This document shows, piece by piece, positions 23,482 through 43,938 of a stretch of DNA of 64,000 bases; within the stretch, counting starts at the first letter, position 1, and each line of letters opens with the position of its first letter. The stretch is from the NCBI GenBank assembly GCA_963662465.1, contig OY759599.1, positions 416,001-480,000 on the forward strand, in the 5' to 3' direction. The DNA comes from Desulfatiglandales bacterium (GTDB lineage Bacteria > Desulfobacterota > DSM-4660 > Desulfatiglandales > Desulfatiglandaceae). The notes beneath the pieces are model-generated. The model was not told where the DNA came from, searched no databases, and saw only the letters and a program-made list of their open reading frames with translations. The translations under genes were made by a program, and so were the position numbers.

Positions 23482-23721
23482 CTAAAGCCCAGCAGCATGA
23501 GAATGCCCAGGATCAGCATCACCAGACCCACCACAGGATATCCCCAGTGCCATTCCAGTTCAGGCATGAATTTGAAGTTCATACCGTAGACCCCGGCAAT
23601 GAAGGTCAGCGGTATAAAGATGGTGGCAATGATGGTCAGGACCTTCATCACTTCGTTCATCTTATTGCTGAGGCTCGAAAGGTAGATGTCCAGGGTACTC
23701 GATACGGTGTCTCGAAGGGTT
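23463..23721 (-). pseudogene. corA: 3' fragment of CorA Mg2+/Co2+ transporter
   Basis: MNEVMKVLT...GVYGMNF..MPEL...KKW signature; 5' part replaced by intron sequence. Confidence 0.88.
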
Positions 23722-24620
23722 GTTAACCGCCTGCGCAATACGCATTTGAAGCCTTTGGTTCATCGCGGATTAACGTGAAATCGCGCTTTGAGATTGTTTC
23801 GGTTCGGGCTGTAGGTGCGACTTTAGTCGCACAGGGTAGGCTTAATGTGCGACTAAAGTCGTACCTACAATCCGCTCAGAAGCCAAATCTCACGCGAATC
23901 CACAATGAGCCAAGCCTTTTCACGTTACTCTTAACGACATCCCAATTAATGAGTTGCCAGTTTGGAGCTTGTTGTGGAAGTGCACCCGTCACGAAGACCG
24001 TCATTTGCTATTCTCCCATCAGAAGGTTCTTCAAATTATCTCACGCATGAGCACCCGCCAAAATTCAGCTCCCTTTCGGGCCGGAGATAACTCCGTATCC
24101 CACCCATTACAGGAGGGCATTGGCTTGGTAAGGCGTCTTGCACCCGCAACACCAACGGCCTGCCTCACGGTTGGCTTGCCACAAAACTTTATGGCGATGT
24201 TACGAGCTTACCACGTTCCGCAATAAATACTGTTAACTGACTTAGGTCCACCCCCTATACCGGCGGCACAACATCCGCGCCGGGCGTACGTTCGAGACTC
24301 CCGACCTGGCCGCACACCGTTTGGTCCAAGCCTATCGGCCTCTTTGGCTTGTTGCTGTTTACGATACTGCAGGTGTTTGAATATACTGACCATATCAGTC
24401 AATCCCAGCCCTAATCCGGATGAGGTTTCCAGAGGAACAGTCCACTCACGCTTTCTGTCCTGACCTTCCAACTTCAAAGGTCCTCGGTACATTGTCGGGA
24501 GGGCTTCACACCCCGTCATCAGCGCAACGGCAGCATGCCTCCCTAGGATGTCGGTGGCGGAACACCGAGTTTCCACGATTCTTCTGTGAAAACATATATT
24601 TAAAGCAACTTCGTGTCGCA
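23722..24620 (-). mobile_element. Group II intron 1 (IIB/chloroplast-like), 3'-truncated
   Basis: 5' end (G)TGCGACACGAAG matches intron 4; RT N-terminus MTVFVTGALPQQAPNWQLINWDVVKSNVKRLQMRIAQAV from 24004 is restored when the MITE is removed; no domain V/VI. Confidence 0.8.
23757..23911. mobile_element. 155-bp MITE with internal GTAG-type REP doublet
   Basis: Imperfect TIRs GGTTCATCGCGGATT / AATCCACAATGAGCC; 8-bp TSD AAGCCTTT (23749-56, 23912-19); inner palindrome 23810-23869. Confidence 0.85.
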
Positions 24621-25432
24621 GTCGGGTAGCCGGGGGCTGTTACCAGCCCCAAGCCCCAAAGAACCGTACTTGAGACTTTCACCTCATACGGCTCAAGCCT
24701 CTCAAAGGCCGACCCTGATGGGGCCACCCGCTGATTATAAAAAAAAAGTAACCAACTTTGCGATACTAACCGGCTGCCACTTACCGCAGTGGCGGGTGCA
24801 CCAGTCGACCAAAAGGCCACCGTCATTTGCTTTCCCGCCTTGGGTGGTTCGGCCGGGCTTCTCGCAAAGAGAGACCCGTCGGACGTCTGCTCGCTTTCGC
24901 GCCGGGCAAAGTTTGAGCCCGTATCCGTTTCATTACAAAACGGCATTCGCTTCTTCCGACATCCTACACCCGCATACCCATCGGATACCCTTGCGGGCAA
25001 CCTACCCAAAAGGGAGGTATACGGGGTTATCATGTTCCGCGTAAGTACCCGAGCAGGTTAGGTTCCGCCCCTACGCCGGTGGCACGACATCAGCGACGGA
25101 GGAGTTAGCAGCCTCCGTTCCTGGCCACGTACCTTTTGGTCCAAGCCTTTCAGCATCTTAGGCTTTTTCTCGTGACGACGCTGCAGCGATTCACATGTGT
25201 TAACCGTACTGCTCAATTCTAGCTCCCTTACCGCATGATGCTTGCAGAGTTGAGGTCCCCTCACGGTTCCCTCTTCCGGAAAATTCCGCGGGCTTCATTG
25301 TCCCGAGAGCTTCACACCCCTGGATTACTCCGGACGCATGTCCCGGTAGAATACCTGTTGCAGAAAACAGGGTTTTGTTATATGGTTTATATCAATATCT
25401 AAAACAGCTACTTACGCGACATCACGTCGCAC
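24621..25432 (-). mobile_element. Group II intron 2, ORF-less (812 nt), IIB-like
   Basis: 5' GTGCGACG; domain V GAGCCGTATGAGGTGAAAGTCTCAAGTACGGTTC (24694-24661); domain VI ending CTACCCGAC; only a residual MTVAFWSTGA start at 24826. Confidence 0.88.
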
Positions 25433-25519
25433 CCGAACGACAAGCTCACCAGCGCCTCCTCCGACCCCCGCTGGAACCGCGGAAAAGTATCAGGCGTCTG
25501 GTGCAGCGTTTGGTTATTT
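25433..25519 (-). other. attC site A
   Basis: R'' AAATAAC, 5-bp spacer, L'' GCTGCACC ... L' GGTGAGC, 5-bp spacer, R' GTTCGG followed by intron 2. Confidence 0.88.
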
Positions 25520-25676
25520 CCCTTACTTAATCACTCTTCCATGCATATTATTATGGGTTAGTATTGCCTCTTTGTCGGCATGAGATTCGTGGAAAGCACT
25601 GATGGGAAGAGGGAAGATATTCCGTTTGGACTGTGCATCACAACCCAGTGTTTGGAAAAGCAGTAAGACCCAACAG

Positions 25677-25904
25677 CTATATATTTGTAAGTTCCGGAAT
25701 ATGTTCATCTTCGTACTTTTCAATAAGTACGCCAATAACTTCCATCAAAGAGGCTAACGGGTGATTTTCATTTTCCCCAACTGTGTCAATCAGGCTATCT
25801 AATACTGCAACAAGGCGCTTATAATCATTCTCCGCATGGGGAACAAACACTAAAGTAGCCAATTCTGGCCAAGTTTTTTGGACGTTTTGCACTTCTGCTA
25901 ACAT
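25677..25904 (-). CDS. higA: Short HigA-like antitoxin (no C-terminal HTH visible)
   Basis: Directly downstream of higB; E.DY..L...LD.L.D...HPL..L...IG.LI..YE pattern. Confidence 0.65.
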   Translation of the reverse strand: MLAEVQNVQKTWPELATLVFVPHAENDYKRLVAVLDSLIDTVGENENHPLASLMEVIGVLIEKYEDEHIPELTNI

Positions 25905-25907
25905 TGG

Positions 25908-26195
25908 TTACTCCTTCCATCTGCCTTCATCATATTCGGCGTGAGTTAAAATTTCGCGGATATACACTTTCTGACGATTGTAGTGTATAGCGGCAACCAA
26001 GCGTGCCTTATTCCCACCAATGTTGAAAACGGTCAATTTGCCAACTTGATCAGCGTGTGGAAAATCATTGCGCAATTCTACAAAAGAACAGAAACTGGCC
26101 TTCTTCATCATTCTATACCAGTTTTGGAGTGATGTTTTTGAATTAGGATGTTTTTCGGCAAACTCATTTAACCGTTTTCTCGTGATGATATGCAT
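25908..26195 (-). CDS. higB: HigB-family mRNA interferase toxin
   Basis: MHIITRKRL...VFNIGGNKARL...ILTHAEYD. Confidence 0.88.
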   Translation of the reverse strand: MHIITRKRLNEFAEKHPNSKTSLQNWYRMMKKASFCSFVELRNDFPHADQVGKLTVFNIGGNKARLVAAIHYNRQKVYIREILTHAEYDEGRWKE

Positions 26196-26300
26196 TTGAT
26201 ATTCTGAGCCTTCCCCAAATTACCATAAGGAGTTTCGCGCTTTTCGTAAGGCCGCTAGAGCGGTCCCATTTGAGGTTATGTAAAAATATTGTGGTTCTAC

Positions 26301-27236
26301 CTATGTTTTAAAAATCTCAAGAAATGCTATCTTCCTATTTTCTTCAATGAATACGCACTTTCTTGAAATGCTATCGTTTACATTAGCCGCAAGTTTTTCC
26401 ATTTCAGTGGCATCTCTGTAAATGAGTTTCCAACCCATGTAGGTCTCCATGTATCCAACATCTTTTATATCAGGCACAAAGTTCCCTATCAAAATGCGTC
26501 CCCCAGGTTTCAGCATTCCGAACATGGCATCCGTTATTATTGTTCCTACGAGATGCGGGAGGTAATCAAACAAACCAAGCGCATAGACCAAATCAAATTT
26601 TCCCAGTTGGAGTTCGTTCTTTATTAGCTGTTTGATAGTTCCATGTATGCAATTGATATTATCACAATCTCCGAATCTTTTTTCGACAAACTGAAGGCTT
26701 TTTGGATCTTGATCAAAGGCAACATATCTGCCTATACGGTTAGATTTCAAAGCTTCCACATAGTTAGCCTCATTCAGATGGCCAGAGGCAATCGACAAAA
26801 TGTCAGGCGATCGGACCGAATCAGCAATTTCATCAATTATTCTGGCAATAAGGTTTCGACGCTCTCTTACTGCGCATGGAGCCGGGGCTGAGCTCGTATA
26901 TTTGTAAATATTTTTTCCGACTTTCGAAGCATCGCCTACTGTTTTCGATACTGAGTCATCCCGGTAGATAAAGTCTATGAGAACCGCATCACCGGGATAC
27001 CCTCTTGGTTTTGAAAACGCTCTTGATGAAAAAGGGTCTTGGTGAACTATTTCTCGCAATGGATGCTCAATACATTTTTGCGAAAAATATTGCCATTCCG
27101 TATTATCCATAGATATACGAAAATCTTTCAGACCGCAAACAAGTTCCTCCATAGTTTCATGGACATCATCTGATTTGTCAATTTTTGAAAAAATGGAATC
27201 TAAAAATGCTTCTGCTTCCTCATGCTTCTTTTCCAT
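26301..27236 (-). CDS. Class I SAM-dependent methyltransferase (cassette gene)
   Basis: KPRGYPGD, ILSIASG, FDLVYALGLFDYL, LKPGG motifs; low GC. Confidence 0.8.
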   Translation of the reverse strand: MEKKHEEAEAFLDSIFSKIDKSDDVHETMEELVCGLKDFRISMDNTEWQYFSQKCIEHPLREIVHQDPFSSRAFSKPRGYPGDAVLIDFIYRDDSVSKTVGDASKVGKNIYKYTSSAPAPCAVRERRNLIARIIDEIADSVRSPDILSIASGHLNEANYVEALKSNRIGRYVAFDQDPKSLQFVEKRFGDCDNINCIHGTIKQLIKNELQLGKFDLVYALGLFDYLPHLVGTIITDAMFGMLKPGGRILIGNFVPDIKDVGYMETYMGWKLIYRDATEMEKLAANVNDSISRKCVFIEENRKIAFLEIFKT

Positions 27237-27279
27237 AACCCGACGCTCCTTCGCTTAAACGTTATCGTTGACTATGCAA

Positions 27280-27328
27280 AAATAACTAGAAGATCACCGG
27301 CTTTGTCCGCGTGGATCTTCGGGTTGTT
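27280..27328 (-). other. attC site B (short; R'' end interrupted by class C intron)
   Basis: Plus-strand hairpin AAC-TAGAA-GATCACC...CGTGGATC-TTCGG-GTT; R' GTTATTT is the complement of R'' of site A. Confidence 0.75.
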
Positions 27329-29451
27329 GTGTGCCGGGCACGGCACGTGTTCTTAAGGGTGCGCGCAATGTACCATGATTCCGATATTTTACGCAAGTCC
27401 CAGACCCAGCCAGGTAGTGGCGAAGGGTGTAGCGGTATCACAACCGGGTACCCGGTAACGGGCCTGGAGAGGCAGTGGCCTTGCCGCGGCAGGGCACCGC
27501 AAACGCACGGGGCGACGAACAGAAATCGAGTGAGGCGGGTCTGGTGGGACGAGTTCGCAACACAGAACAAAGTCCTCTAACTACTATAGGCCAGGCACGT
27601 TGTCGGCGCTCGTGTGCGGAAAGACACGTGTTTACCCCGGGAGGCCCGTTGCGTCTCGTAGGGAACTGCAACTGAAATCTACCGGAATATAAGGGAAAAC
27701 CGGTAAAACAAAACCCTGGCGTCAGGAACATTTCGAGTCATAGCCCTGACGAGCCCGGCCTATTGGTCGGGAAACACAAACAAATGGACTCGACAGATTG
27801 CGGAAACTACGAGTGAGCGAACCGTAAGGGGAGCCCACCGCGTAACGGGAGTCAGCAGAGGGCATATTAAGCCGGAGAAACGAGCCCTGAATAAAGGGAG
27901 GCCTCACTCCGGTGAAGGCCCGAACGGTCCCACCTGCCGAATGGCAGGGGTAAATGAAAGGGTTAATAAGGAGACGTTTCTAATGAATCCATTGCAGCAG
28001 TTGAAACAGCTTGAGCTGAACTTGGAATTCCCTGACACATTTGTGTCGCGGAATACAGGTTCTGAAGAATTCATTGCGTCACGGCTATCAGAAAGCCCGA
28101 CAGGTCAAATTCGGTTCATGGAGTCAATCCTTGAGCGGAACAACATGAGATGCGCTGTCAAGCGTGTAATCAAGAACAAGGGCGCCCCTGGGGTGGACGG
28201 AATGACCGTCCGCAAAATAGAAAAGTATCTGGAATGCCACAGGGACAAAATTGAGCAGGCATTGCTTGAGGGAAACTTCAAGCCTATGCCGGTACGGCGG
28301 AAAGAGATCAATAAGCCGGGAGGCGGAGTTCGCCTTTTGGGCATTCCGACCGTGTTGGATCGCGTGATTCAGCAGGCCATAGCTCAAGTCTTAACCGCAA
28401 TCTGGGATCATACCTTCTCGGAAACGAGCTACGGGTTCCGGCCAAACCGTTCACAACATGACGCTATGCGTCAATACTGTGAGTATGTAAGGCAGGGATA
28501 CCGGTATGCTTTAGATATTGATCTATCCAAATTTTTTGACCGAGTTAACCATGATAGACTTATGGCTCGCTTGGCCACCCGGATCAATGACAAGCGTGTA
28601 TTGAAACTCATTCGTAGTTTCCTTACTGCGGGCGTCATGATTGGCGGTCTTGAGCAGGCAACACAAGAGGGTACCCCGCAAGGCCCACTTTCTCCACTGC
28701 TCAGTAATATAGTCCTTGACGAACTTGATAAAGAGCTTGAAAAGCGTGGCCTTCGCTTTGTCCGTTACGCTGACGACTGTGTCATATTTGTCAGAAGTAA
28801 AACGGCGGCGAATCGAGTAATGCAAAGCATTAGCCGCTTTATCGTAAAGAAACTGCGACTAAAGGTGAACCGGGACAGGAAAGCGAAGACTCCGAAAGCG
28901 CCATTCGTCGTCCATGGGAAAGCAATGTAGGATTAGGCGTGACAAACTCACGCAAGAAACCGAAAATTCGCATTCACTGGAAAACAATTAAGCGGTTCAA
29001 AGAGCGGGTTCGTGAAATCACGGCCCGTCGCTGTGGGCGCAGTCTTAAACAGGTAATTGGCGAACTAAAGGTGTTCATGAACGGATGGTGGAACTATTAT
29101 GGTATTACCGAATCGTTCAACCGGCTCCGCCCTTTAGACCATTGGGTCAGACGACGCCTTCGGGCGCTTGTTTGGAAACATTGGAAGAACCGCCGAACCC
29201 GTGTAGAGAACTCCTGAAACGGGGTGTCCACCGCAACTTCGCGGTTACAACCGGGTGCGCTAGGAAAGGCCCCTGGAGGATGAGCAAAGTCAAATGGGTT
29301 CAAATTGCTTTACCGGATGCCTACTTTAAATCTCTCGGTCTTGTATTTCCCTGGATTTGATTCCTGCCTTGATCAGCCGAATCGCCGTATACGGACCCGT
29401 ATGTACGGTGGTGTGGGAGGGGGGAGCTGTGAGGCTCCTCCCTATCCCTAT
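27329..29451 (+). mobile_element. Group II intron 3, class C (IIC), antisense to the cassette array
   Basis: 5' GTGTGCCGGGCACGGCAC; short domain V with CGC triad (29381-29412); 3' end CCTATCCCTAT. Confidence 0.85.
27941..29360 (+). pseudogene. ltrA: Group II intron RT/maturase, frameshifted into three pieces
   Basis: NKGAPGVDG, SYGFRP and YADD present; QGGP reduced to QGP; small insertion near 28875 and frameshift near 29210. Confidence 0.85.
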
Positions 29452-29460
29452 ATATTTTTT

Positions 29461-29874
29461 TTATTTTAAGATGACAAATTCTTTAATGAACGTTTCTGCT
29501 TTGATCACTCTGACTTTTGGAAACCTGACATTTTTCAAAATATTATAATGTTTGTCATTTGTAATCAGAAAGTCGGCGCCGCCGCAAACAGCACAGTCAA
29601 CAAATTTTTGATCGTCTTCGTTGGCAACGGGAAGGCGAAAGCTAAAAGTTGGATTGACGAAGACCACGTTTTCGGAAGTAAGGACAAAGAGCCAGAACTG
29701 CTCCAGCAGCTCATTCGGAAAGACTCTCTGTAAAATCTCCTCGTATTCAAGCAGAACGGATGTTGAGACCAGCAGTCTGTATTTTCCCGAATATATGCCT
29801 CTGAGAATGGGATGATAGTAACTCTTGGGGTTGAATCCGGAGAAAAATATGTTTGTGTCAATAACGAGTCTCAT
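29461..29874 (-). CDS. PIN-domain (VapC-like) toxin
   Basis: VIDTN, EYEE, DDQKFVDCA, ITND. Confidence 0.88.
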   Translation of the reverse strand: MRLVIDTNIFFSGFNPKSYYHPILRGIYSGKYRLLVSTSVLLEYEEILQRVFPNELLEQFWLFVLTSENVVFVNPTFSFRLPVANEDDQKFVDCAVCGGADFLITNDKHYNILKNVRFPKVRVIKAETFIKEFVILK

Positions 29875-30125
29875 TTTTTCTTTTCATTCCTGAATGTTTC
29901 AACAATTTCAAAAAAATCCTCTTCGCTCCATCTGTTTTTTTCAAAGGTTCCGGCAATTCCTTTCGACAAGTTTTCAAAGGCAGCCTTATTTATCAGTTTT
30001 TTTATGTCAATCGAATATGCTCTGGTCTTTAGCTCGTGAATTATTTGAATGGTGTCTATCTCATCTTTCTGAAAACCAATTTCTCCTAGTTTGCTGCAAA
30101 TTTCAGGTGTAATTGTTTCGAGCAT
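29871..30125 (-). CDS. Putative antitoxin partner of the PIN toxin
   Basis: 84 aa, 4-bp overlap upstream of the toxin; no family motif recognised. Confidence 0.6.
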   Translation of the reverse strand: MLETITPEICSKLGEIGFQKDEIDTIQIIHELKTRAYSIDIKKLINKAAFENLSKGIAGTFEKNRWSEEDFFEIVETFRNEKKK

Positions 30126-30166
30126 CTGTTTTTCCTTTCTTTAAAAAACCGCGATATGTGAGAAAA

Positions 30167-30252
30167 ATATAACGACAAGCTCACCAGCGCCTCCTCCGGC
30201 CCCCGCTGGAATCGCCCAAGTATCAGGCGTCTGGTGGAGCGTTTGGTTGGCA
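30167..30252 (-). other. attC site C
   Basis: R'' TGCCAAC, L'' GCTCCACC, L' GGTGAGC, R' GTTATAT; internal sequence near-identical to A and E. Confidence 0.9.
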
Positions 30253-30309
30253 AAACGGTGGTCGTTTCAGGATGCACGATTTTCGCTGTGTTCGAAAGGT
30301 CATTCTTGA

Positions 30310-30540
30310 TCATTTTTGGTTTGCCACGAAATGTTTGTCAAGTTGATCTAAGATTGCTAACCCCTTTTTGCGGTTGCCTTCGGCCGCGCGCTTGCGAAAT
30401 CGCATCTCGGCACTATGTCCGCGCAGTAGAGAAGAAGAAATTTCCTCATATAGCTTGTTAAGGCTCATTTTACGTTGTGCTGCCACAACCTTTATTCCTT
30501 GATGAATCTCATCGGGTAGTCGTAGAGTTATTGTTCCCAT
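30310..30540 (-). CDS. Ribbon-helix-helix / HicB-like antitoxin
   Basis: TITLRLPDEIH...MSLNKL; overlaps PIN gene. Confidence 0.75.
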   Translation of the reverse strand: MGTITLRLPDEIHQGIKVVAAQRKMSLNKLYEEISSSLLRGHSAEMRFRKRAAEGNRKKGLAILDQLDKHFVANQK

Positions 30541-30965
30541 TTTGCAAACTCCTTTAAAAATAATTCTGGGGTGATAATTCGGAAATTGTCAAAATGCAAT
30601 TCGCCACTTGTCAAATCTCGAATATTTCGCGTGATAATCAGCGCCGCCTGCCCGGCAACGGCCAGTTCAATTAAGTGGTTGTCGGCTTCATCTCTTAAAT
30701 TTGGTCGCCAACGGTAATAAATGTTGATCCATTGGCAACAGTTCAGAAATGCATTCAGCAAATTTTCTCGCTCTCTGGCCGAAATTGGACATTTCAAAAA
30801 AAGGGCATCCCGAGCAAGGATATCCTCGTATTCATAAAATAATGCCTCGCTCATCAAAGCCTGAAATTTTCCTCCCAGAACCAGTCTCAAAATGGAACGA
30901 CAAGTCTTAGCAGGCTGCAAAACCGCTGCGAGAAATATGTTGGTATCAACAATAATTCGAGTCAT
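30528..30965 (-). CDS. PIN-domain toxin
   Basis: IVDTN, EYED, WRPNLRDEADNHLIELAVAG, TRN. Confidence 0.88.
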   Translation of the reverse strand: MTRIIVDTNIFLAAVLQPAKTCRSILRLVLGGKFQALMSEALFYEYEDILARDALFLKCPISARERENLLNAFLNCCQWINIYYRWRPNLRDEADNHLIELAVAGQAALIITRNIRDLTSGELHFDNFRIITPELFLKEFAKWEQ

Positions 30966-31840
30966 TATGTCATAAATTTCTCAAAATATGCAAGATCGAC
31001 ATCATATACAGTTCTTTTTGTTACCCCAAGTTCGACGCGTTGGAACATCTCAACAAGTTTAACGCCATCGACGAGTTCGACTTGTGGTGCCCCATCCCGG
31101 TTGGCTTCCTGAATCGCGGCATTGGTGAATGAAGACGTTGTAATGATAATGCCTTTTTCAGCTCTGCCAATCATTGCGTTCCTGAAATCACCAACTTGGG
31201 CACGTGAAACCAGATTGCCTTCTGCATATCTTTTGCATTGAAAAAGAACTTTGAAACTGACAAATGGATTTATTTCAAGAGTACCGTGGCCATCAATCCC
31301 GCCATCGGCCGACCCTCCGGTCACCTCAACATTTCCAAATCCGGATTCTCGCAAAAGTTCACGGCAAACTTTCTCAAAGCCAACAGGACTCAAGGAACGT
31401 AATGTGGTGATGAGGTCTGGTTTATCTTCGGAAATCAAGTCTTCAGGGGAGCTGTCTTCTTGTTCGGTTGCGTCAAGATTTTCTGACTGCCGTTGCTTTC
31501 TGTTCTGAGCATGAATAGCGACCCACTTCAAGAAAATCTCACGAGCTTCAGTTTCAGAAATCTGAGCATGTCTCCCTTTTTCTGTGAGCTTCCACGTGCC
31601 GTACTTTGAAGAATCCAGCAAGCCTTCCCAAACAAGATACTGCCTGGCCCATGCAACTTGATTGTGAAACTTGCTGCCTCCTGACTTCAATGTTTCGTCA
31701 AGAATTTCATCGGGTAAATTTAGACTATTGGCAATACGAGCGGACACTTCGCGAGGACGGCCCGAATCACCGAGATCACGGAGCGCATCGAGTAACGGAC
31801 CGAACCATTTGACAAATTCTGCTTTTGATTTTTTTGCCAT
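30965..31840 (-). CDS. mrr: Mrr-family (type IV) restriction endonuclease
   Basis: N-terminal winged helix (NQVAWARQYL...G.W.LT); DGGIDG...QCKRY catalytic motif; ITTSSFT. Confidence 0.88.
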   Translation of the reverse strand: MAKKSKAEFVKWFGPLLDALRDLGDSGRPREVSARIANSLNLPDEILDETLKSGGSKFHNQVAWARQYLVWEGLLDSSKYGTWKLTEKGRHAQISETEAREIFLKWVAIHAQNRKQRQSENLDATEQEDSSPEDLISEDKPDLITTLRSLSPVGFEKVCRELLRESGFGNVEVTGGSADGGIDGHGTLEINPFVSFKVLFQCKRYAEGNLVSRAQVGDFRNAMIGRAEKGIIITTSSFTNAAIQEANRDGAPQVELVDGVKLVEMFQRVELGVTKRTVYDVDLAYFEKFMT

Positions 31841-31857
31841 CTTCTGTTTCTCTGATT

Positions 31858-31940
31858 TGCCAACTAGAAGATCACCGGCTTGTCCGGCCCCCGCCGGGAC
31901 CGCCCAAGTATCAGGCGTCTGGTGAAGCGCTCGGTTGTGC
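31858..31940 (-). other. attC site D (hybrid of B-type and A/C/E-type arms)
   Basis: R'' GCACAAC, L'' GCTTCACC, L' GGTGATC, R' GTTGGCA (complement of R'' of site C). Confidence 0.85.
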
Positions 31941-31996
31941 CGTCGATGTTCATTACTTGTACGAACTCTAAGCCGCTAATTTTTATTGGGGTTTCA

Positions 31997-32278
31997 TTAT
32001 CTCTCTCGTGCCTTTTCATAAACAGCACCCTTTTCTCTTTTTCCAACGGCAACTACGAGGATGAATAACTCTTTATCAATGACCTCATACACAAGTCGGT
32101 AGCCACTGGCTCTAAGTTTGAGCTTGTAATGATTATCAAAACCGGAAAGTTTGCAGGAGAGTACGTGAGGAGCTTCCAAACGCTCTTTCAGTTTCTTCCT
32201 GAATTGCGTTCGAATAGAATTGTCCAGCTTCTTCCATTCTTTCAAAGCAGTAGGGAGGAACTTGAGTTTATAGCTCAT
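31997..32278 (-). CDS. RelE/StbE-family toxin
   Basis: MSYKLKFLPTALKEWKKLD...YKLKLRASGYRLVY...VGKRE. Confidence 0.9.
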   Translation of the reverse strand: MSYKLKFLPTALKEWKKLDNSIRTQFRKKLKERLEAPHVLSCKLSGFDNHYKLKLRASGYRLVYEVIDKELFILVVAVGKREKGAVYEKARER

Positions 32279-32519
32279 CGATATCAACCTCGATGGCCTG
32301 TTCTTTCTCATTTTGACGCTCTTTCACGATCAAGCCAAGCTCAAAATCCTCCAACCTATCAAGTATCTGTTGATAAGTGTCAGCTGGTATCAAGTAGGCG
32401 GTTGGTTTGTTGTGGTTTAAGATGGCAATCGGTTCCCCGTCTGATGCATCAATCAAAGCTGACGGATTTTTTTTCATCTCAGAAATGCTTGCTGAACAGT
32501 TGGCTAATACGGCTTCCAT
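32268..32519 (-). CDS. Phd/YefM (StbD-like) antitoxin
   Basis: ASISEMKKNP...AILNHNKPTAYL; overlaps toxin. Confidence 0.9.
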   Translation of the reverse strand: MEAVLANCSASISEMKKNPSALIDASDGEPIAILNHNKPTAYLIPADTYQQILDRLEDFELGLIVKERQNEKEQAIEVDIDEL

Positions 32520-32697
32520 AAAGACCTCCATCAATAATGGGTTTATATTCAGGTCTTATTTTAGGTCTTTTTCCAAGCCACTTCAAGAGAAAACTTTTGC
32601 CATAGCACTATGCACAAAAGGAACCTATATGGCTGCTGAAGAAATATTTTACTGCGAAAACATAATTGATCACAACCCCAACCCGAGGTGAGCTGGG

Positions 32698-34963
32698 GCC
32701 GGGTAGCCGGGGGGTGTTACCACCCCCGAGCCCCTTCAGAACCACGCATGAGACTTTCACCTCACACGGCTCAAGCGTCTCTGAAGGCAGCCCTGGTGGA
32801 GCGGCCCGGCTGTTCGTCTCCTATGTGGCCATCATCGCCCGATATTCCCGGGCTGACAGGGCCGGTAAAAGCTTGCTTTCCCTGTTATGCCGGCGGCGCC
32901 AAAAATAAGCGGCGTAGTCCGGATCATAGGGGTTGGCAGCGGCTTTGATCTTCACGTGCCTTCGGATTCCAATTGTGCTGATTCTCAGGAGTTTGTAAAG
33001 CTTTTTACCTCCTGTTATGGTCTTCGCCCATACGGCACAGACGTTCTTTCCGGCGGCTGACCAGTAATTTTGGATAAGCCATTGCACGGATTTGTTCGGG
33101 TGCCGTCGGCGCAGCATGCATCGAATCTGGTCAAAGACGTACGTGTCGATACGACTGAAGGCTACCGATGCCACCACGTGGCGGTGGTAATTGGCCCAGC
33201 CTCGAAGCACCGAATTGAGCTTCTTGATCAGGGCAGGCATCGGGGCGGTGACGTATTTGCGAATCAGTTCCCTTACCTTTTGCATGAGGGTGTGAACTCC
33301 CGCATCGGATGGCGTGATGTGCAGTTTTCGGCCAAGCTTGCGAAAGGTTTGCCCGAGGAACGTGAATCCGTGTTTAATGTGCGTGATCAGGGTCTTTTCA
33401 ATTGAAAGCTCCAGGCCGCGCACGGCAAGGAAAGCTTCGACCACCGGCTGAATGACTTCTTTCAGGATCTTTTTGGATTTCCCGGTAATAATGAAGTCAT
33501 CCGCGTAGCGGACAAAATTGATACGGCGCCTTCGGGGGACTGCACTGTGGACGGCTTCCTCCAGCCCGTCAAGCACCATATTCGAAATGGTGGGACTGAT
33601 AATCCCACCTTGCGGAACTCCCTTGCGTGTCGGGTAGGTGACGCCGTTTTCCACATAACCCGACTTCAACCATTTATGAAGAACGACTTTGTCCACGGGA
33701 ATGTTTTGAAGTATCCAATCGAAAGAGATATTGTCAAAACACCCCTTGATGTCCCCCTCCAAAATCCATGGTGCCGAGTTGGGCTTTGACAGGGCATTAA
33801 AGGCGCAGGCCACGGCATCGGCACATGACCGGCCTTCCCGAAAACCATAGGAATTCCGATCCGCTGTTGTTTCGGCTACCGGCGCCAGGGCCAGTTTGTA
33901 CAGGGCCTGCTGCGCTCTGTCATACATGATGGGAATCGACAGGGGCCTCAATTTGCCGTTCTTCTTTTCGATATAAATCCTCCTCAATGGTTGAGGGTGA
34001 TAGCCACGTCGCCGCAGGCTGATAACAGCCCGCCATTTGGCTCGGGCGCCTCGCCACAGAACGCCGTTAATGCCGGGGGTCTTTTTCCCCTTATTGGAGG
34101 TCACCCGTTTTACAGCCAGTAGCTTGGCGTGGAACGAGTGGGTTAACAGATATTGTAAAGCACTTACTTTGTTCCACCTGTTTTCCTGAACAGCCTTTGC
34201 GATACGCACCTGCAGCCTTCTGACTTCCCGTCGGGCGTGTTCAAAATCAATTGAACTCCACTTGTCCGCGTCGTCTCCGAGTGCACCAGCCTGAACGGCC
34301 GTCATTCGCCCGTTTCACTGGCTGCCTTCTCTTCTTCAAAGGTTCTCCAGATGCTCTCGCAACGAGATACCTGTTGGACGTCTGCACGCTCATTCACCGG
34401 AGCGGAAGCCTGCCGGTTTTGGCGTTAAGCCATGTTTCATGCTCTATCTTTCGGCTTTCCCGAAAGCATTCGCTTCTTCCAACCTCTCTTTCCCGTCGCT
34501 CCATCGGCGTGCCTTACGGTTTGCGTGCCTGGAATTGCTCCAGGCGGAGGACGGGGTTACTACGTTCCGCATAGTTGATCCAATGGATGACTTAGGTGCG
34601 CCCTCTACGCCGGTGGTACGACGGTTCCGTGCAGGCAGTTGAGAGACCTGCAACCTGACCACATCCGCTGACACTGGGCAGCGGCATAAGACCTGTTAAT
34701 CCTCGTAGGCCTTTCGCTTGTGATCGACGCTGTAGACATTCAATTAATTTCACCATATCATCCGACCCTGGTCCTTAACCGGGGAGGATTCCCGGAGGGG
34801 TTCGCCTGTCACCATTTGAACCCGATTCGGTACGTTGTCCGCGGGGCTTCGCACCCCATCATCAGCGCGATGGTAGCACGCCCGCGTAGGGTCCGGCAGG
34901 AACATGCCGGGTACTACATGTAACTACATGAATACACTCAAACTATGCGACTTCGTGTCGCAC
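32698..34963 (-). mobile_element. Group II intron 4 (IIB/chloroplast-like), full length
   Basis: 5' GTGCGACACGAAG; domain V 32772-32739 with AGC triad; domain VI ending CTACCCGGC; removal restores R' GTTGTGC. Confidence 0.9.
32821..34305 (-). CDS. ltrA: Group II intron RT/maturase, no HNH endonuclease domain
   Basis: N-terminal W..I.F....V.RLQ.RIAKA, SYGFR, PQGGIISP, YADD, maturase LNSVLRGWANY. Confidence 0.95.
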   Translation of the reverse strand: MTAVQAGALGDDADKWSSIDFEHARREVRRLQVRIAKAVQENRWNKVSALQYLLTHSFHAKLLAVKRVTSNKGKKTPGINGVLWRGARAKWRAVISLRRRGYHPQPLRRIYIEKKNGKLRPLSIPIMYDRAQQALYKLALAPVAETTADRNSYGFREGRSCADAVACAFNALSKPNSAPWILEGDIKGCFDNISFDWILQNIPVDKVVLHKWLKSGYVENGVTYPTRKGVPQGGIISPTISNMVLDGLEEAVHSAVPRRRRINFVRYADDFIITGKSKKILKEVIQPVVEAFLAVRGLELSIEKTLITHIKHGFTFLGQTFRKLGRKLHITPSDAGVHTLMQKVRELIRKYVTAPMPALIKKLNSVLRGWANYHRHVVASVAFSRIDTYVFDQIRCMLRRRHPNKSVQWLIQNYWSAAGKNVCAVWAKTITGGKKLYKLLRISTIGIRRHVKIKAAANPYDPDYAAYFWRRRHNRESKLLPALSAREYRAMMAT

Positions 34964-35048
34964 CACAACGACAAGCTCACCAGCGCCTCCTCCGGCCCCC
35001 GCCGGGACCGCAGGACTATCAGGCGTCTGGTGCAGCGTTTGGTTCGGT
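34964..35048 (-). other. attC site E
   Basis: R'' ACCGAAC, L'' GCTGCACC, L' GGTGAGC, R' GTTGTG followed by intron 4. Confidence 0.9.
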
Positions 35049-35760: not shown

Positions 35761-36702
35761 TTACAGGTATCGCTGGGTAAGATACCGAATATAGTCCGGG
35801 TGTTCCGTTCGTAATTTATTTGCCAATTTAACAATTAGCTCCTGATATGTAAGCGAATGGAATTTAATACCATCGCTTTTTGTAACTTCGGTAAACTTGA
35901 GAACCTCATCCCGATGCTGTTTTCCCTGATCACCAAAAACGTCGTACCAAAGGTACAACAAACGGAAGCCAGCCTTTCCGAACTGCTTTTTTAGCCCAAG
36001 GATATGTTTCACAAGTTGGGCAGGGTGTAAATGAAGAAATTCATGATCATCGGGGGATATGCCCCCTGCGAAACGCAATAAGTTTGGAATGTCTGCCCAA
36101 GTATCATCGAGGCAAAGGTACTTTGCTTTGAGTCCGCCATGTTTATATACACCATATGCTTCAGAAAATTTGCATTCAATTGCGAACCTCTTAATTTTTG
36201 CTGATGGTGCATTGTGGATGACTACGTCAATATTTGGATGATAACCAAATTTGTCATTGATGGGATATTTTTCCTCAAAATATAAATTTCTTGATACCTG
36301 TGAACCCACACGGCAAAGGCCACACTGAGCTGCAATCACCGGAGTCGCGTTTATTGATTTCCAATATTGAAAAACATTGACCCCCAGCGCTGATGACGAA
36401 TGAACAGCCTGCATTTTGCCAGGAAATTCCGCTGCACCCAGTTCGCCACCATCCCCAGCCGCAAATGACTTTTGGACGTCAGCTAATAGTGGCTGAAAGA
36501 GGTTCTGATTCAACTCGCAAGTATAAGCAAGACGTCCTCGCTTGCCCTTGCTTCCGGTAAGCTTAATGCCGGAATTTATTGCCCATGCCGTTTGTTTCGA
36601 TAAGATGTACTCGTATCCGTTCATTATTTTCACCGACTCCGAACCAATGATTATACAGTTTTTTTTGTCATCAAATATCCGTTCCCGCATGTTATCCGAC
36701 AA
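35761..36702 (-). CDS. Putative PD-(D/E)XK restriction-endonuclease-like protein
   Basis: HSSSAL..N.F, FEEK, PNIDVV...IECKFSE, QLVKH motifs; low GC; start may be further downstream. Confidence 0.65.
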   Translation of the reverse strand: MSDNMRERIFDDKKNCIIIGSESVKIMNGYEYILSKQTAWAINSGIKLTGSKGKRGRLAYTCELNQNLFQPLLADVQKSFAAGDGGELGAAEFPGKMQAVHSSSALGVNVFQYWKSINATPVIAAQCGLCRVGSQVSRNLYFEEKYPINDKFGYHPNIDVVIHNAPSAKIKRFAIECKFSEAYGVYKHGGLKAKYLCLDDTWADIPNLLRFAGGISPDDHEFLHLHPAQLVKHILGLKKQFGKAGFRLLYLWYDVFGDQGKQHRDEVLKFTEVTKSDGIKFHSLTYQELIVKLANKLRTEHPDYIRYLTQRYL

Positions 36703-36827
36703 AATCGAACCAATCTCCCTCTGAAATCTATATTCTGTAAATTATTCGATGGAAAAACGCAAGGGCAATATTTTTATATTCTGCGAAATATTTAATTAGT
36801 GATTCTCATTAGGGACTTGGCTTTCGC

Positions 36828-36975
36828 TCTCGTTCATACGTTCTAATGTGGGAATAGTTTTGGGACGCTCCGCGTCCTGCGGCAAACTCGAAAAACACTT
36901 GTTTAAATTGGGTATATTCATGATTTAGGACACAGATCGTTCAGAGGTGGGTTCCAACATAGAGCATTTGAACAG
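36828..36975. repeat. Degenerate REP-like palindrome doublet
   Basis: Decayed version of 37261-37398 (ctcgttcatacg...gtgggaa; ggacgctccgcgtcc; gttccaacatagagcatttgaac). Confidence 0.55.
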
Positions 36976-37089
36976 GATATGGAGATCGTAATTCCAAAAT
37001 GAGAATTGCTAATGTCCGGTTTTTTCTCTGAGGCTCATTATGATTTGCCGGTTGAAAGCCGGCATGAAATTATTATTGACAAAGATAAA

Positions 37090-37105
37090 TGGCATGGCGT
37101 ATGCA
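37090..37105 (+). promoter_or_regulatory. Possible sigma-54 promoter of a disrupted gene
   Basis: TGGCATGGCGTATGCA (GG-N10-GC), followed by AGGAGG and ATG at 37159. Confidence 0.45.
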
Positions 37106-37175
37106 TTCCGTATATTGTGCGTATTTGTAATATTGAACATCTAATAGGAGGGCATATCATGATTCCAGTTCCGAC

Positions 37176-37202
37176 AGAATCAATTATAAATTGCGGCAAT
37201 TC
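37176..37202. repeat. 27-bp direct repeat, copy 1
   Basis: AGAATCAATTATAAATTGCGGCAATTC, identical at 41895..41921. Confidence 0.9.
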
Positions 37203-37398: not shown

Positions 37399-39301
37399 GT
37401 GCGCCTGTGAAGGCGCTTTATCAGTGCGGTGAAAGTCCGTACCGGAGTATGCCATAGCTCCGTAGCCGAAGGTAACTGCGTCGCCGCGAGGCGGGGTGGA
37501 GAGCAACCGGAGGCGAAAAGTCAGTCCGTAGGATGACGAACCCGATTCGGTGTCATGTGGTGGCGAGCCTACCGTTCCATGGTGAAGCCTGAAACTCACA
37601 GACCACGCTGTAATGGCGGTTAAAGCGATGGTTTGACGGCATGGTATGTTTGGGGTCGGAATGACTGGAAGGTAAAGCGAGATAAGCAGGGAGACCTGTC
37701 TCTTGGGGTGACAGGAGGCAGGAGTCAGAGTCCTCATAGTACCGTAGCGACAGAACGGTCCTGCTAACAAGGCTTACGGCGTGAGACCAGTACCCGCCGC
37801 CTGCGTCGGATACCGGGTTGTGAAAAGCGCGGATAGCAAAACCGTGCCGAGGGAAGGAGGATAGGAAGATAGATACGGAAAGGTCATATAGATGCAGCTA
37901 AATCAAGCAGTCTCGGCAGTGTTGGAAACAACTAAACGCGAGGCAGAAACCCGATGGGATTGGGTGGAAGCATCGGTGTGGACGGAACGTATGTTGGCAG
38001 CCCTGGGTAACGGGGTGAAAGGTGGTAAATGGTACAGTTTGATGGATAAGGTGTTCGCCTTGTCGACGCTGGAAGCGGCTTGGGGACGTGTCAAAGCCAA
38101 TAAAGGAGCGGCAGGGATAGACCGTATCAGCATAAAGCGCTTTAAGGAGCAGGCGGAGAAATACCTTGCCGAACTGCATGAAACCTTGAAAGCGGGAACG
38201 TACCGACCGGAAGCGGTAAAACGGGTATACATTCCGAAAAGCGACGGCAAACAACGCCCGCTGGGGATACCCACGGTCAAAGACCGGGTAGTGCAGGCAG
38301 CGGTTAAAATGGTTATGGAGCCCATATTCGAGCATGAATTTCTGCCGATGAGTTACGGCTTCAGGCCGCAAAGAGGTTGCAAGGACGCGTTGCGAGAAGT
38401 AGACGCGCTTATTAAGGAAGGCTACACCTTCATACTGGACGCCGACCTGAAAAGTTACTTTGATACGATTCCGCACGATAAGCTGATGCAACAAGTCGAA
38501 ATGCGCATCAGCGACGGCAAATTGCTCAATCTGATTCAAATGTTCCTGAAACAGGACGTGATGGACGGCTTGGAAAGATGGACACCGACGGGTGGTTCGC
38601 CACAAGGGGCGGTAGTCAGCCCCTTGCTTGCGAATATTTACCTGCATCCTCTTGACAGCCTGATCGCGGAATCAGGTATGCGGATGGTGCGTTACGCGGA
38701 CGACTTTGTTATCCTCAGCCGCAGTCAAACGGAAGCGGAGAATGCTTTGCAAAAGGTACGGGAGTGGGTACAGGCTAATGACCTGAGCTTACACCCGGAC
38801 AAGACGCATCTTGGCGACTGTCGACAAAAGGGTCAGGGATTTGAATTCCTGGGATACCGGTTTGAGGCAGGAAAGCGCTGGATACGCAGTAAAAGCCGTA
38901 AAGCCCTTCGTGATAAAATCCGGGAAGAGACCCGGCGCAAACGTAGCGGAAGTATGGAAAGCATCATTGATGATCTGAACCCCATGCTCGAAGGCTGGTT
39001 TGGTTACTTCAAACACGCCTACCGCACTGAGTTTGCGGCGGTGGATAAGTTTGTCCGCCGACGCTTACGCGCCGTATTATTGCGTCGTAACAAACGCAAG
39101 GGCTGGGGCAAAAGCCTTGAAGTCCACCGCCGCTGGCCGAATGCCTACTTCGCGAAAATCGGGCTTTTCACTATGCATGAGGCCCGGTTAGCAGCGTGCC
39201 GATCCCGATGAGGAAACTATCGACCGGAGAGCCGTGTGCGGGAGAACCGCATGCACGGTTCGGAGGGAGGGGAGAGCCAAGAGGCTCTTTCCTACCCCTA
39301 T
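37399..39301 (+). mobile_element. Group II intron 5 (1903 nt)
   Basis: 5' GTGCGCC; domain V GAGCCGTGTGCGGGAGAACCGCATGCACGGTTC (39229-39261); 3' CCCCTAT; boundaries confirmed by second copy. Confidence 0.95.
37892..39211 (+). CDS. ltrA: Group II intron RT/maturase, no endonuclease domain
   Basis: NKGAAGID, RPLGIP, SYGFRP, PQGAVVSPLL, YADD, maturase LNPMLEGWFGYF. Confidence 0.95.
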   Translation: MQLNQAVSAVLETTKREAETRWDWVEASVWTERMLAALGNGVKGGKWYSLMDKVFALSTLEAAWGRVKANKGAAGIDRISIKRFKEQAEKYLAELHETLKAGTYRPEAVKRVYIPKSDGKQRPLGIPTVKDRVVQAAVKMVMEPIFEHEFLPMSYGFRPQRGCKDALREVDALIKEGYTFILDADLKSYFDTIPHDKLMQQVEMRISDGKLLNLIQMFLKQDVMDGLERWTPTGGSPQGAVVSPLLANIYLHPLDSLIAESGMRMVRYADDFVILSRSQTEAENALQKVREWVQANDLSLHPDKTHLGDCRQKGQGFEFLGYRFEAGKRWIRSKSRKALRDKIREETRRKRSGSMESIIDDLNPMLEGWFGYFKHAYRTEFAAVDKFVRRRLRAVLLRRNKRKGWGKSLEVHRRWPNAYFAKIGLFTMHEARLAACRSR

Positions 39302-39353
39302 AGCCCACAAAAAAATCAAAGTGTAAACTACAAAATGAAGGATGTCGCAATTC

Positions 39354-41978: not shown

Positions 41979-43881
41979 GTGCGCCTGTGAAGGCGCTTTA
42001 TCAGTGCGGTGAAAGTCCGTACCGGAGTATGCCATAGCTCCGTAGCCGAAGGTAACTGCGTCGCCGCGAGGCGGGGTGGAGAGCAACCGGAGGCGAAAAG
42101 TCAGTCCGTAGGATGACGAACCCGATTCGGTGTCATGTGGTGGCGAGCCTACCGTTCCATGGTGAAGCCTGAAACTCACAGACCACGCTGTAATGGCGGT
42201 TAAAGCGATGGTTTGACGGCATGGTATGTTTGGGGTCGGAATGACTGGAAGGTAAAGCGAGATAAGCAGGGAGACCTGTCTCTTGGGGTGACAGGAGGCA
42301 GGAGTCAGAGTCCTCATAGTACCGTAGCGACAGAACGGTCCTGCTAACAAGGCTTACGGCGTGAGACCAGTACCCGCCGCCTGCGTCGGATACCGGGTTG
42401 TGAAAAGCGCGGATAGCAAAACCGTGCCGAGGGAAGGAGGATAGGAAGATAGATACGGAAAGGTCATATAGATGCAGCTAAATCAAGCAGTCTCGGCAGT
42501 GTTGGAAACAACTAAACGCGAGGCAGAAACCCGATGGGATTGGGTGGAAGCATCGGTGTGGACGGAACGTATGTTGGCAGCCCTGGGTAACGGGGTGAAA
42601 GGTGGTAAATGGTACAGTTTGATGGATAAGGTGTTCGCCTTGTCGACGCTGGAAGCGGCTTGGGGACGTGTCAAAGCCAATAAAGGAGCGGCAGGGATAG
42701 ACCGTATCAGCATAAAGCGCTTTAAGGAGCAGGCGGAGAAATACCTTGCCGAACTGCATGAAACCTTGAAAGCGGGAACGTACCGACCGGAAGCGGTAAA
42801 ACGGGTATACATTCCGAAAAGCGACGGCAAACAACGCCCGCTGGGGATACCCACGGTCAAAGACCGGGTAGTGCAGGCAGCGGTTAAAATGGTTATGGAG
42901 CCCATATTCGAGCATGAATTTCTGCCGATGAGTTACGGCTTCAGGCCGCAAAGAGGTTGCAAGGACGCGTTGCGAGAAGTAGACGCGCTTATTAAGGAAG
43001 GCTACACCTTCATACTGGACGCCGACCTGAAAAGTTACTTTGATACGATTCCGCACGATAAGCTGATGCAACAAGTCGAAATGCGCATCAGCGACGGCAA
43101 ATTGCTCAATCTGATTCAAATGTTCCTGAAACAGGACGTGATGGACGGCTTGGAAAGATGGACACCGACGGGTGGTTCGCCACAAGGGGCGGTAGTCAGC
43201 CCCTTGCTTGCGAATATTTACCTGCATCCTCTTGACAGCCTGATCGCGGAATCAGGTATGCGGATGGTGCGTTACGCGGACGACTTTGTTATCCTCAGCC
43301 GCAGTCAAACGGAAGCGGAGAATGCTTTGCAAAAGGTACGGGAGTGGGTACAGGCTAATGACCTGAGCTTACACCCGGACAAGACGCATCTTGGCGACTG
43401 TCGACAAAAGGGTCAGGGATTTGAATTCCTGGGATACCGGTTTGAGGCAGGAAAGCGCTGGATACGCAGTAAAAGCCGTAAAGCCCTTCGTGATAAAATC
43501 CGGGAAGAGACCCGGCGCAAACGTAGCGGAAGTATGGAAAGCATCATTGATGATCTGAACCCCATGCTTGAAGGCTGGTTTGGTTACTTCAAACACGCCT
43601 ACCGCACTGAGTTTGCGGCGGTGGATAAGTTTGTCCGCCGACGCTTACGCGCCGTATTATTGCGTCGTAACAAACGCAAGGGCTGGGGCAAAAGCCTTGA
43701 AGCCCACCGCCGCTGGCCGAATGCCTACTTCGCGAAAATCGGGCTTTTCACTATGCATGAGGCCCGGTTAGCAGCGTGCCGATCCCGATGAGGAAACTAT
43801 CGACCGGAGAGCCGTGTGCGGGAGAACCGCATGCACGGTTCGGAGGGAGGGGAGAGCCAAGAGGCTCTTTCCTACCCCTAT
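41979..43881 (+). mobile_element. Group II intron 6 (1903 nt), near-identical to intron 5
   Basis: Same termini and length; two substitutions noticed by eye (one silent, one V/A). Confidence 0.95.
42472..43791 (+). CDS. ltrA: Group II intron RT/maturase
   Basis: Differs from the 37892 protein only at LEVH/LEAH. Confidence 0.95.
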   Translation: MQLNQAVSAVLETTKREAETRWDWVEASVWTERMLAALGNGVKGGKWYSLMDKVFALSTLEAAWGRVKANKGAAGIDRISIKRFKEQAEKYLAELHETLKAGTYRPEAVKRVYIPKSDGKQRPLGIPTVKDRVVQAAVKMVMEPIFEHEFLPMSYGFRPQRGCKDALREVDALIKEGYTFILDADLKSYFDTIPHDKLMQQVEMRISDGKLLNLIQMFLKQDVMDGLERWTPTGGSPQGAVVSPLLANIYLHPLDSLIAESGMRMVRYADDFVILSRSQTEAENALQKVREWVQANDLSLHPDKTHLGDCRQKGQGFEFLGYRFEAGKRWIRSKSRKALRDKIREETRRKRSGSMESIIDDLNPMLEGWFGYFKHAYRTEFAAVDKFVRRRLRAVLLRRNKRKGWGKSLEAHRRWPNAYFAKIGLFTMHEARLAACRSR

Positions 43882-43938
43882 AGGGAAACTCAGAGAGAGA
43901 AGAAAAGGATGTTAAAAGGCCTTTTTAGCAGGTTATTG

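Follow-up and report, generated by a model that had tools for sequence, protein, structure and literature searches.

Introduction

Homing of group II introns to attC, the recombination site of integron cassettes, has so far been described in detail only for an intron class different from the one considered here and for the opposite strand. In a review of bacterial group II introns, three target specificities are distinguished, and targeting of attC is tied to class C alone (PMC4424553). Here we analyse a 64,000-nt stretch of the genome of a Desulfatiglandales bacterium (assembly GCA_963662465.1, contig OY759599.1, positions 416,001 to 480,000 of the forward strand, in its entirety called the window), which holds several group II introns within an array of integron cassettes. 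Based on the position and boundaries of these introns and on comparisons to relatives in other genomes, we propose that they are retromobile introns of the IIB1 type with a CL1 reverse transcriptase (RT) lacking an endonuclease domain, which very probably home to the 3' half of attC, on the top or cassette-coding strand, through the base pairing that is usual for class IIB.

The group IIC-attC introns, for example S.ma.I2, share with the present introns attC as the preferred target, an RT without endonuclease domain and an accumulation in arrays (PMC7923331, PMC4424553, PMC3001079). According to the same reports, they have a class C RNA without exon-binding site 2 (EBS2) and enter the bottom strand at the R'' box (TTGT^T, the caret denoting the junction here and below), opposite to cassette transcription, recognizing a stem-loop together with an intron-binding site 1 (IBS1) of 3-4 bp. 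In contrast, the present introns, apparently IIB1 with a CL1 RT, occupy the top strand at position +6 of the R' box, behind the crossover, use a 6-bp EBS1 in addition to EBS2, and match the Rfam model D1D4-7 and not D1D4-3. Strand, position, RNA class and the presence of EBS2 thus set them outside the IIC-attC group.

Closer in type is UHB.I2, a single IIB1/CL1 intron located behind an attC in a soda-lake metagenome, with flanking exons reported to be without conservation (Sonbol & Siam 2021, PMC7923331). Compared by description, not by sequence, UHB.I2 is apparently alike in being IIB1 with a CL1 RT, resembles the present introns in the lack of an endonuclease domain, in its cassette orientation and in its location immediately behind attC, has the 5' UUGCG start seen here in most family B and C copies, and differs in being a single copy on a contig edge for which the accessible text proposes no GTT or EBS1 rule (PMC7923331). 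The introns described here, in contrast, are present in dozens of copies, with a fixed GTTNNN^ position, covariation between loop and flank, empty sites, stacks and two RT clades. A preliminary description of the window had called IIB introns in cassette arrays little studied, a fair judgement, as this is the one relevant report that we found (PMC7923331); in the accessible text of the literature searched, neither the targeting rule nor its EBS1/EBS2 basis, the stacks or the clades were encountered. Also close are the introns Th.e.I3/T.el4h and EcI5 (IIB1, CL1; PDB 6ME0), T.el4h providing the nearest solved RT and the EBS2 loop having the same layout. Both home to unique gene sites (PMC8643678), whereas the present lineages possess a fixed AAC in EBS1 and use a repeated recombination site.

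Results

Introns and attC sites in the window

The introns, numbered 4, 2 and 1, their functional parts and the attC sites next to them are located as follows.

32698..34963, minus strand: intron 4, a full-length group II intron of 2266 nt, 5' GUGCG, 3' ..GGCUACCCGGC (sequence and Rfam)
32821..34305, minus strand: RT/maturase of intron 4, 494 aa, without endonuclease domain (TIGR04416, Pfam, PDB)
34638..34643, minus strand: EBS1 of intron 4, CUCAAC, in a domain I hairpin loop, 5/6 pairing with GUUGUG (alignments and covariation)
34716..34720, minus strand: EBS2 of intron 4, CAAGC, behind the motif GUCG(A)-U-C-A, 5/5 pairing with GCUUG at exon positions -13 to -9
24621..25432, minus strand: intron 2, an 812-nt family A derivative without open reading frame (ORF), EBS1 GCUAAC at 25109-25104 (alignment and Rfam)
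23722..24620, minus strand: intron 1, a dead family B remnant stacked behind intron 2, EBS1 (C)UCGAAC at 24296-24290, RF02012 match at 24408-24569
34964..35048, minus strand: attC upstream of intron 4, R'' ACCGAAC at 35048-35042, R' GTTGTG at 34969-34964 (nhmmer profile match)
31859..31940, minus strand: attC closing the intron 4 cassette, R'' GCACAAC at 31940-31934, R' GTTGGC at 31864-31859, unoccupied here
25433..25519, minus strand: attC upstream of introns 2 and 1, R'' AAATAAC at 25519-25513, R' GTTCGG at 25438-25433 (fold z-score -2.1)

Introns 2 and 4 start three nucleotides behind the GTT of an attC R' box on the cassette-coding strand, and all coordinates given for this arrangement in the preliminary description were confirmed on the minus strand. 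Read on that strand, intron 4 opens with GTGCGAC at 34963, right after GTT(34969-34967)GTG, and ends with ..GGCTACCCGGC at 32698, a 3' end confirmed by a contig that diverges exactly at this base; the 3' exon opens with C at 32697. Intron 2 opens at 25432 after GTT(25438-25436)CGG and closes at 24621. Set beside the boundary consensus 5' GUGYG...AY 3', both introns start with GUGCG, the 3' ends being ..GC in intron 4 and ..AC in intron 2, and many relatives start with UUGCG. Rfam model RF02012 (group-II-D1D4-7) matches the minus strand at 34771-34911, 25223-25372 and 24408-24569, with 75.7-118.7 bits for the three introns (gathering score 34), and the domain V/VI model RF00029 at 32698-32774 and 24621-24696, with 52.6 and 59.1 bits (gathering score 40).

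Intron 1 had been placed at the same site as intron 2. It does lie directly behind it, abutting at 24620, but is a remnant without its first base (..CCCGAC^TGCGACACG). An insert of ~155 nt with an inverted repeat disrupts the RT frame, which then breaks off near 23722 and leaves a broken N-terminus only. The insert (~23756-23911, minus strand) contains the internal inverted repeat GTAGGTACGACTTTAGTCGCAC / GTGCGACTAAAGTCGCACCTAC and is flanked on both sides by AAAGGCTT. At 23500-23722, again on the minus strand, the cut-off RT gene abuts a C-terminal fragment of a CorA-type magnesium transporter (..GVYGMNF..), and a rearrangement terminates the array at this joint.

Both occupied sites terminate a repeat of ~85 nt, NNNNAAC-CAAACGCTGCACCAGACGCC...GGCGCTGGTGAGCTTGTC-GTTNNN, whose arm GGAGGCGCTGGTGAGCTTGTCGTT is found three times in the window, as opposed to 0 in 100 shuffles. 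The repeat folds to a long bulged hairpin that closes AAC with GTT, with z-scores of -2.9, -3.9 and -2.1 in three folds and only -0.4 and -1.2 in two others; the first two values refer to the attC upstream of intron 4, both strands of which form a long imperfect hairpin. Removal of intron 4 restores GTTGTGC, as had been claimed, and this sequence complements the next R'' (GCACAAC, 31940-31934) in 7/7 positions. Likewise, the short attC that precedes the one in front of introns 2 and 1 has an R' box, GTTATTT, to which the R'' AAATAAC of the latter is complementary. Complementarity of this kind (7/7) holds for three junctions of the window and for five in other parts of the genome; other consecutive pairs fail, probably because the repeat profile missed some attC variants. 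This profile identifies 56 copies in the 8.16-Mb genome, distributed over about a dozen arrays. Several arrays adjoin integrase genes, the genome having five TIGR02249 matches above cut-off, and no intI is present within the 64-kb window. The introns share their strand with the cassette genes, among them ParE, HigB, PIN, BrnT/CopG, Mrr and a methyltransferase.

Pairing of EBS1 with the R' box

The preliminary description had taken three loops, UCGAAC (24295-24290, intron 1), GCUAAC (25109-25104, intron 2) and CUCAAC (34643-34638, intron 4), for EBS1. Judged by sequence comparison, they are EBS1: each caps a covarying hairpin and is complementary to the last six exon bases, a relation that extends to relatives outside integrons. 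In an alignment of 22 diverse sequences, 87% of the hairpin cells are paired, with double compensatory changes at 7/7 pairs, and the covariation score reaches 0.68 compared to 0.25 when shuffled (0/500 as high) and at most 0.12 with the partners slid. The six loop bases are always found at the same spot. They read NNNAAC in the attC lineages, whereas relatives inserted in ordinary genes have non-AAC loops that match their own flanks exactly (loop/flank CUGGCU/AGCCAG, CUCCCA/UGGGAG and CCAUUC/GAGUGG).

To quantify the pairing we tabulated 43 copies from this and other genomes, leaving out three nested copies, two family B copies in a different register, three copies truncated before EBS1, the ambiguous locus L059 and contig-edge copies. 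GTT is present at -6 to -4 in 40 of the 43, including copies from several metagenome-assembled genomes (MAGs) and metagenome contigs; homologous introns elsewhere are thus enriched at GTT, a result in favour of the preliminary description. Complete 6/6 pairing is seen in 19 of the 43. Opposite the three variable loop bases, exon positions -3 to -1 provide a pairing partner in 99/129 cells, compared to 73.9 +/- 4.3 with the flanks shuffled (0/5000), and when the table is reduced to its 25 distinct loop/flank combinations the count is 52/75, against 40.6 shuffled (2/5000). Eleven of the 12 family A copies have the loop GCGAAC, five copies have the flank GTTCGC, and the family B loop CUCGAAC matches GTTCGAG in 7/7 positions. 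The hexamer GTTCGC occurs 2851 times in the genome and therefore cannot explain the sites alone; EBS2 or a structural feature of attC must add specificity.

A second pairing through EBS2

IIB1 introns have an N-EBS2a-A element followed by a 5-nt EBS2, the partner of which, IBS2, lies at about -13 to -9 (PMC8643678). A pattern search of 48 copies located this motif in 44, its internal-loop context being read by eye. Its position is validated by an Erwinia relative that is not associated with attC (L070), where ACCAA/UUGGU pair 5/5 together with an EBS2a C-G pair. In the present genus, EBS2 faces the attC arm GCUUG, with 5/5 pairs for CAAGC of family C and 4/5 for CGAGA of family A, and ORF-less copies have an extra EBS2a U-A pair at -14. 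The overall pairing of 139/200, against 122.6 shuffled (1/5000), comes from flanks that are not independent of each other. As a separate candidate, ACAAGC was considered as a 6-nt EBS2 in all families and rejected for families A and B, where these bases lie in a stem; the register of PMC8643678 was used instead.

Alternatively, the target may be recognized by its structure as in class IIC, with the ribonucleoprotein (RNP) reading the hairpin in single-stranded DNA along with a short IBS1, mainly GUU, so that EBS2 would be dispensable and the NNNAAC of EBS1 would displace the look-alike R'' from R'. The near invariance of GTT, as opposed to the loosely kept three bases behind it, is compatible with such a mode, and an RT without endonuclease domain would fit the need for a single-stranded target. 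Furthermore, nine near-identical copies in one MAG have unrelated bases at -7 to -14, and at attI-like junctions EBS2 pairs 1/5. However, all attC-clade copies found have retained the IIB1 EBS2 loop motif in its canonical form, EBS2 pairs 4-5/5 with the attC arm in this genus, supplemented by the EBS2a pair of the ORF-less copies, and minimum free energy (MFE) folding yields no hairpin in 6 of 12 flanks from other genomes. We consider structural recognition unlikely.

Occupancy and precision of insertion in the genome

The genome contains 28 introns detected with RF02012, which fall into three families. Twenty are preceded by an attC, four by an attI-like junction, three directly by another intron, and one lies elsewhere. 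Of the 25 that are not nested, 21 sit at GTTNNN^, and 19 of the 56 attC profile matches are occupied. Stacking is seen at one site with an A-A-C tandem, and in the window, where intron 2 stands in front of intron 1. The first base of the 3' exon is variable (C, A, G or T).

Family A consists of 12 copies. An intact 510-aa RT is encoded by five, which differ in their 3' exons at an identity of 96.7-99.9%, suggesting recent activity; in six, the ORF contains an insert of ~340 nt, and the window's intron 2, 85.9% identical over 653 nt to a full-length copy, is an ORF-less derivative. Two copies of this family begin with AUGCG. Family B comprises three copies and family C 13, full length being represented by the window's intron 4 (494-aa RT) alone and the remainder being ORF-less copies or 5' fragments ~87% identical to it. 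In five copies (genome positions 3322313, 5886487, 6752326, 6379417 and 4983327), four of them ORF-less family C members and the last from family B, ~3.2 kb are inserted between domains V and VI.

The window itself has an attI-like block, which is read on sequence grounds as an attI region.

36640..37182, minus strand: attI-like array start, 545-bp block ending ..CATTG^GTTCGG

The block has six copies in the genome, three of which are beside a full or partial intI. The junction next to the intI at 6792755 is similar to the end of the block.

A filled family C site, GTTCTC^TTGCGAC...CCCGGC^GCGCCGAGG, has two empty homologous cassettes, GTTCTCGCGCCGAGG, and the inserted unit is therefore exact to the base, with T as its first base. 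With the intron removed, R' complements the next R'' in 7/7 positions at two sites (GTTGTG+C/GCACAAC and GTTCGC+C/GGCGAAC). The possibility that the odd first base (T, G or A) belongs to the exon was discarded in view of the empty/filled pair and the second of these matches. In an RNA library prepared from another sample, one contig connects an intron 3' end (32698) with window base 31858, i.e. the GTTGGC^ position of the attC that is empty here; this one contig suggests that intron occupancy differs between populations.

The association with attC could also be passive, one or a few old insertions having become numerous through shuffling of cassettes by the integrase, through duplication and through recombination among copies, without repeated homing. 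Cassette duplication does occur in this genome, as in the eight-fold tandem cassette, an odd junction (GTTGGC^A) is common to two copies, and others such as GTCG^TTGCGAC look recombinational. This explanation is nevertheless highly improbable. The fifteen 3' flanks tested all differ and none has a second filled copy, the upstream attC sequences differ even where the introns are up to 99.9% identical, and an exact empty/filled pair exists; in addition, loop and flank covary across lineages, and different families are stacked at one site. We give still less credence to a composite unit, in which the intron would carry its upstream repeat along or create new cassettes as proposed for IIC-attC introns, since most copies in this genome do follow one and the same 75-nt repeat, but 37 of the 56 repeats lack such an intron, related introns elsewhere follow quite different attC-like sequences, and the empty sites, lacking only the intron, already contradict it.

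Intron type and relatives in other genomes

The intron 4 RT scores 340 bits with TIGR04416 (cut-off 300) and has the Pfam domains RVT_N, RVT_1 and GIIM only, with no endonuclease domain. Its best PDB match is 6ME0_C, the T.el4h RT (E 4.6e-154, residues 12-477, 517 bits), followed by LtrA at 142.5 bits. T.el4h is a IIB1 intron with a CL1 RT (PMC8643678), in agreement with the earlier designation of the window introns as IIB-like.

Beyond this genome, RF02012 matches are present in 5 genomes among 60 relatives, and their informative flanks obey the GTTNNN^ rule. Searched with the intron 4 RT, species genomes yielded 68 loci. Relatives with at least 68% identity and a readable 5' end are all at GTTNNN^ or one base off, as opposed to those with at most 53%, which are not. 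The expression used to find 5' ends failed or was ambiguous for L042, L052, L053, L055, L061, L069, L078 and L083, which are entered as unknown in the tree. In a metagenome scan with the family A RT, only five loci were found; three metagenome relatives of this RT (55-85% identical) also follow GTTNNN, behind inverted repeats judged by eye. Every row of the RT tree with a known GTTNNN site falls into one of two clades (support 100/100 and 80/58), and no row with another site is located within them. The RTs are 68-83% identical across MAGs labelled as several phyla, and one pair is identical although the two MAGs carry different phylum labels. This pair is L042 and L043, with identical RT stretches of 491 aa in MAGs labelled Acidobacteria and Lentisphaeria, which suggests either a very recent transfer or a binning error. 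Copies that start with UUGCG are likewise found in other genomes (loci L031, L032, L034, L036, L039, L044, L059 and L065), among them full-length copies with an intact RT.

Discussion

Based on these comparisons, we propose the following mechanism for the homing of the IIB1-type introns to attC. EBS1, always NNNAAC, would pair with the R' box GUUNNN, and EBS2 (CAAGC or CGAGA in this genus) with GCUUG, the conserved arm of attC located at -13 to -9. By reverse splicing, the intron would then be inserted after the sixth R' base, three bases past the G^TT crossover, and the reaction may need single-stranded DNA at replication forks. Position and orientation of the introns, their pairing and covariation, their exact ends and their recurrence in further genomes are observed, whereas reverse splicing, present activity of the copies and the need for single-stranded DNA are inferred. 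The attC core would stay intact, no gene would be broken, and the 5' exon would be unchanged. As insertion leaves the 5' exon untouched, further introns can enter at the same point, giving rise to stacks such as intron 2 before intron 1. ORF-less derivatives, i.e. intron 2 and most family C copies elsewhere, are presumably mobilized by the enzyme of full-length copies such as intron 4. Since the EBS1 sequence NNNAAC has the form of an R'' box, the RNP might in addition act as a competitor of attC folding and influence the recombination of cassettes.

Several observations weigh against this mechanism. Pairing of EBS1 with its own flank is incomplete in the window, with only 4/6 for intron 2 and 5/6 for intron 4, and reaches just 3/6 in three tabulated copies. 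Four of the 25 non-nested junctions are irregular (GTTCG^, GTTCGAG^, GTTGTGC^ and GTCG^), intron 1 is without its first base, and most family B and C copies begin with U (UUGCG) where G is near-universal. The cassette CAGACCCGCTGGACA.. occurs once with a family A intron, at a junction that is 2 bases off its 17 empty homologues. Pairing through EBS2 is weak, 0-4/5, in the MAG with nine near-identical copies, and by MFE folding only 6/12 flanks outside the genus form a hairpin ending at GTT. Assignment as IIB1 with a CL1 RT, although likely, follows from one PDB match and motifs and not from a reference phylogeny. The two attC clades sit in an open fork (80/21) with lineages that use other sites, and may have one origin or two. 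Finally, the assembled contigs of four RNA runs contain no exon-exon joint across intron 4.

Travel of the intron with the downstream cassette is plausible, and sound in principle given an insertion point behind the crossover. Four copies located at attI-like junctions are in agreement with it but equally fit direct homing, and among the 15 flanks tested no intron-bearing 3' exon was present at two places. A more far-reaching scenario is that the integron serves as landing pad and vehicle at once, the intron leading the downstream cassette and the integrase excising both, re-inserting them at attI and transferring them. If true, this would explain the attI-like copies, some of the irregular junctions and the spread of the RT across MAGs; we put it forward tentatively, as a possibility that we ourselves rather doubt.

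Homing by EBS1 and EBS2 would mean that attC has been reached by a second, unrelated lineage along a different route, through the base pairing usual for class IIB, with the opposite strand and the opposite end of the site as the point of entry. The targeting rule, which is simple and open to testing, would account for the build-up of introns in chromosomal integrons without harm to genes, and it raises the question of a coupling between integrase and intron mobility. The introns may carry promoters and would be transcribed with the cassettes, and they could thus alter the expression of otherwise silent cassettes. With its fixed short target in attC, the lineage could also become a marker or tool for integron arrays.

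Additional features of the window and genome

Three more group II introns are located on the plus strand of the window, as indicated by RF02001 (D1D4-3) and RF00029 matches and RTs of 329 and 439 aa.

27360..29460, plus strand: group II intron
~37420..39310, plus strand: group II intron
~42000..43890, plus strand: group II intron

The two introns with the 439-aa RT have identical scores. Those at 27360 and 37420, the 5' exons of which were read, each follow immediately after a small hairpin, on the array's bottom-strand side, as in class C, and the window hence harbours class-C-like (RF02001) and IIB-like introns side by side on opposite strands.

At four genome positions (3221157, 3309749, 3743214 and 6840009), an attC is followed, seven bases past GTT, by a sequence that starts with GTGCG (GTGCGCCT, GTGCGTTG, GTGCGAGA and GTGCGGAG, respectively). 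These may represent further intron families that use position +7.

Most arrays are oriented head-on to replication, with 26 of the 28 intron copies in this orientation, if the origin is placed by cumulative GC skew (minimum ~5.74 Mb, maximum ~1.78 Mb); the count is a property of about a dozen arrays, and no mechanism is drawn from it. The CAGACCCGCTGGACA.. cassette forms eight tandem copies with a period of 1609 bp at 4413960-4425223, beside an integrase, and is found at ten further places. At 6845296-6848178, one integron integrase gene is split into two matches ~1.9 kb apart and may be interrupted by an inserted element.

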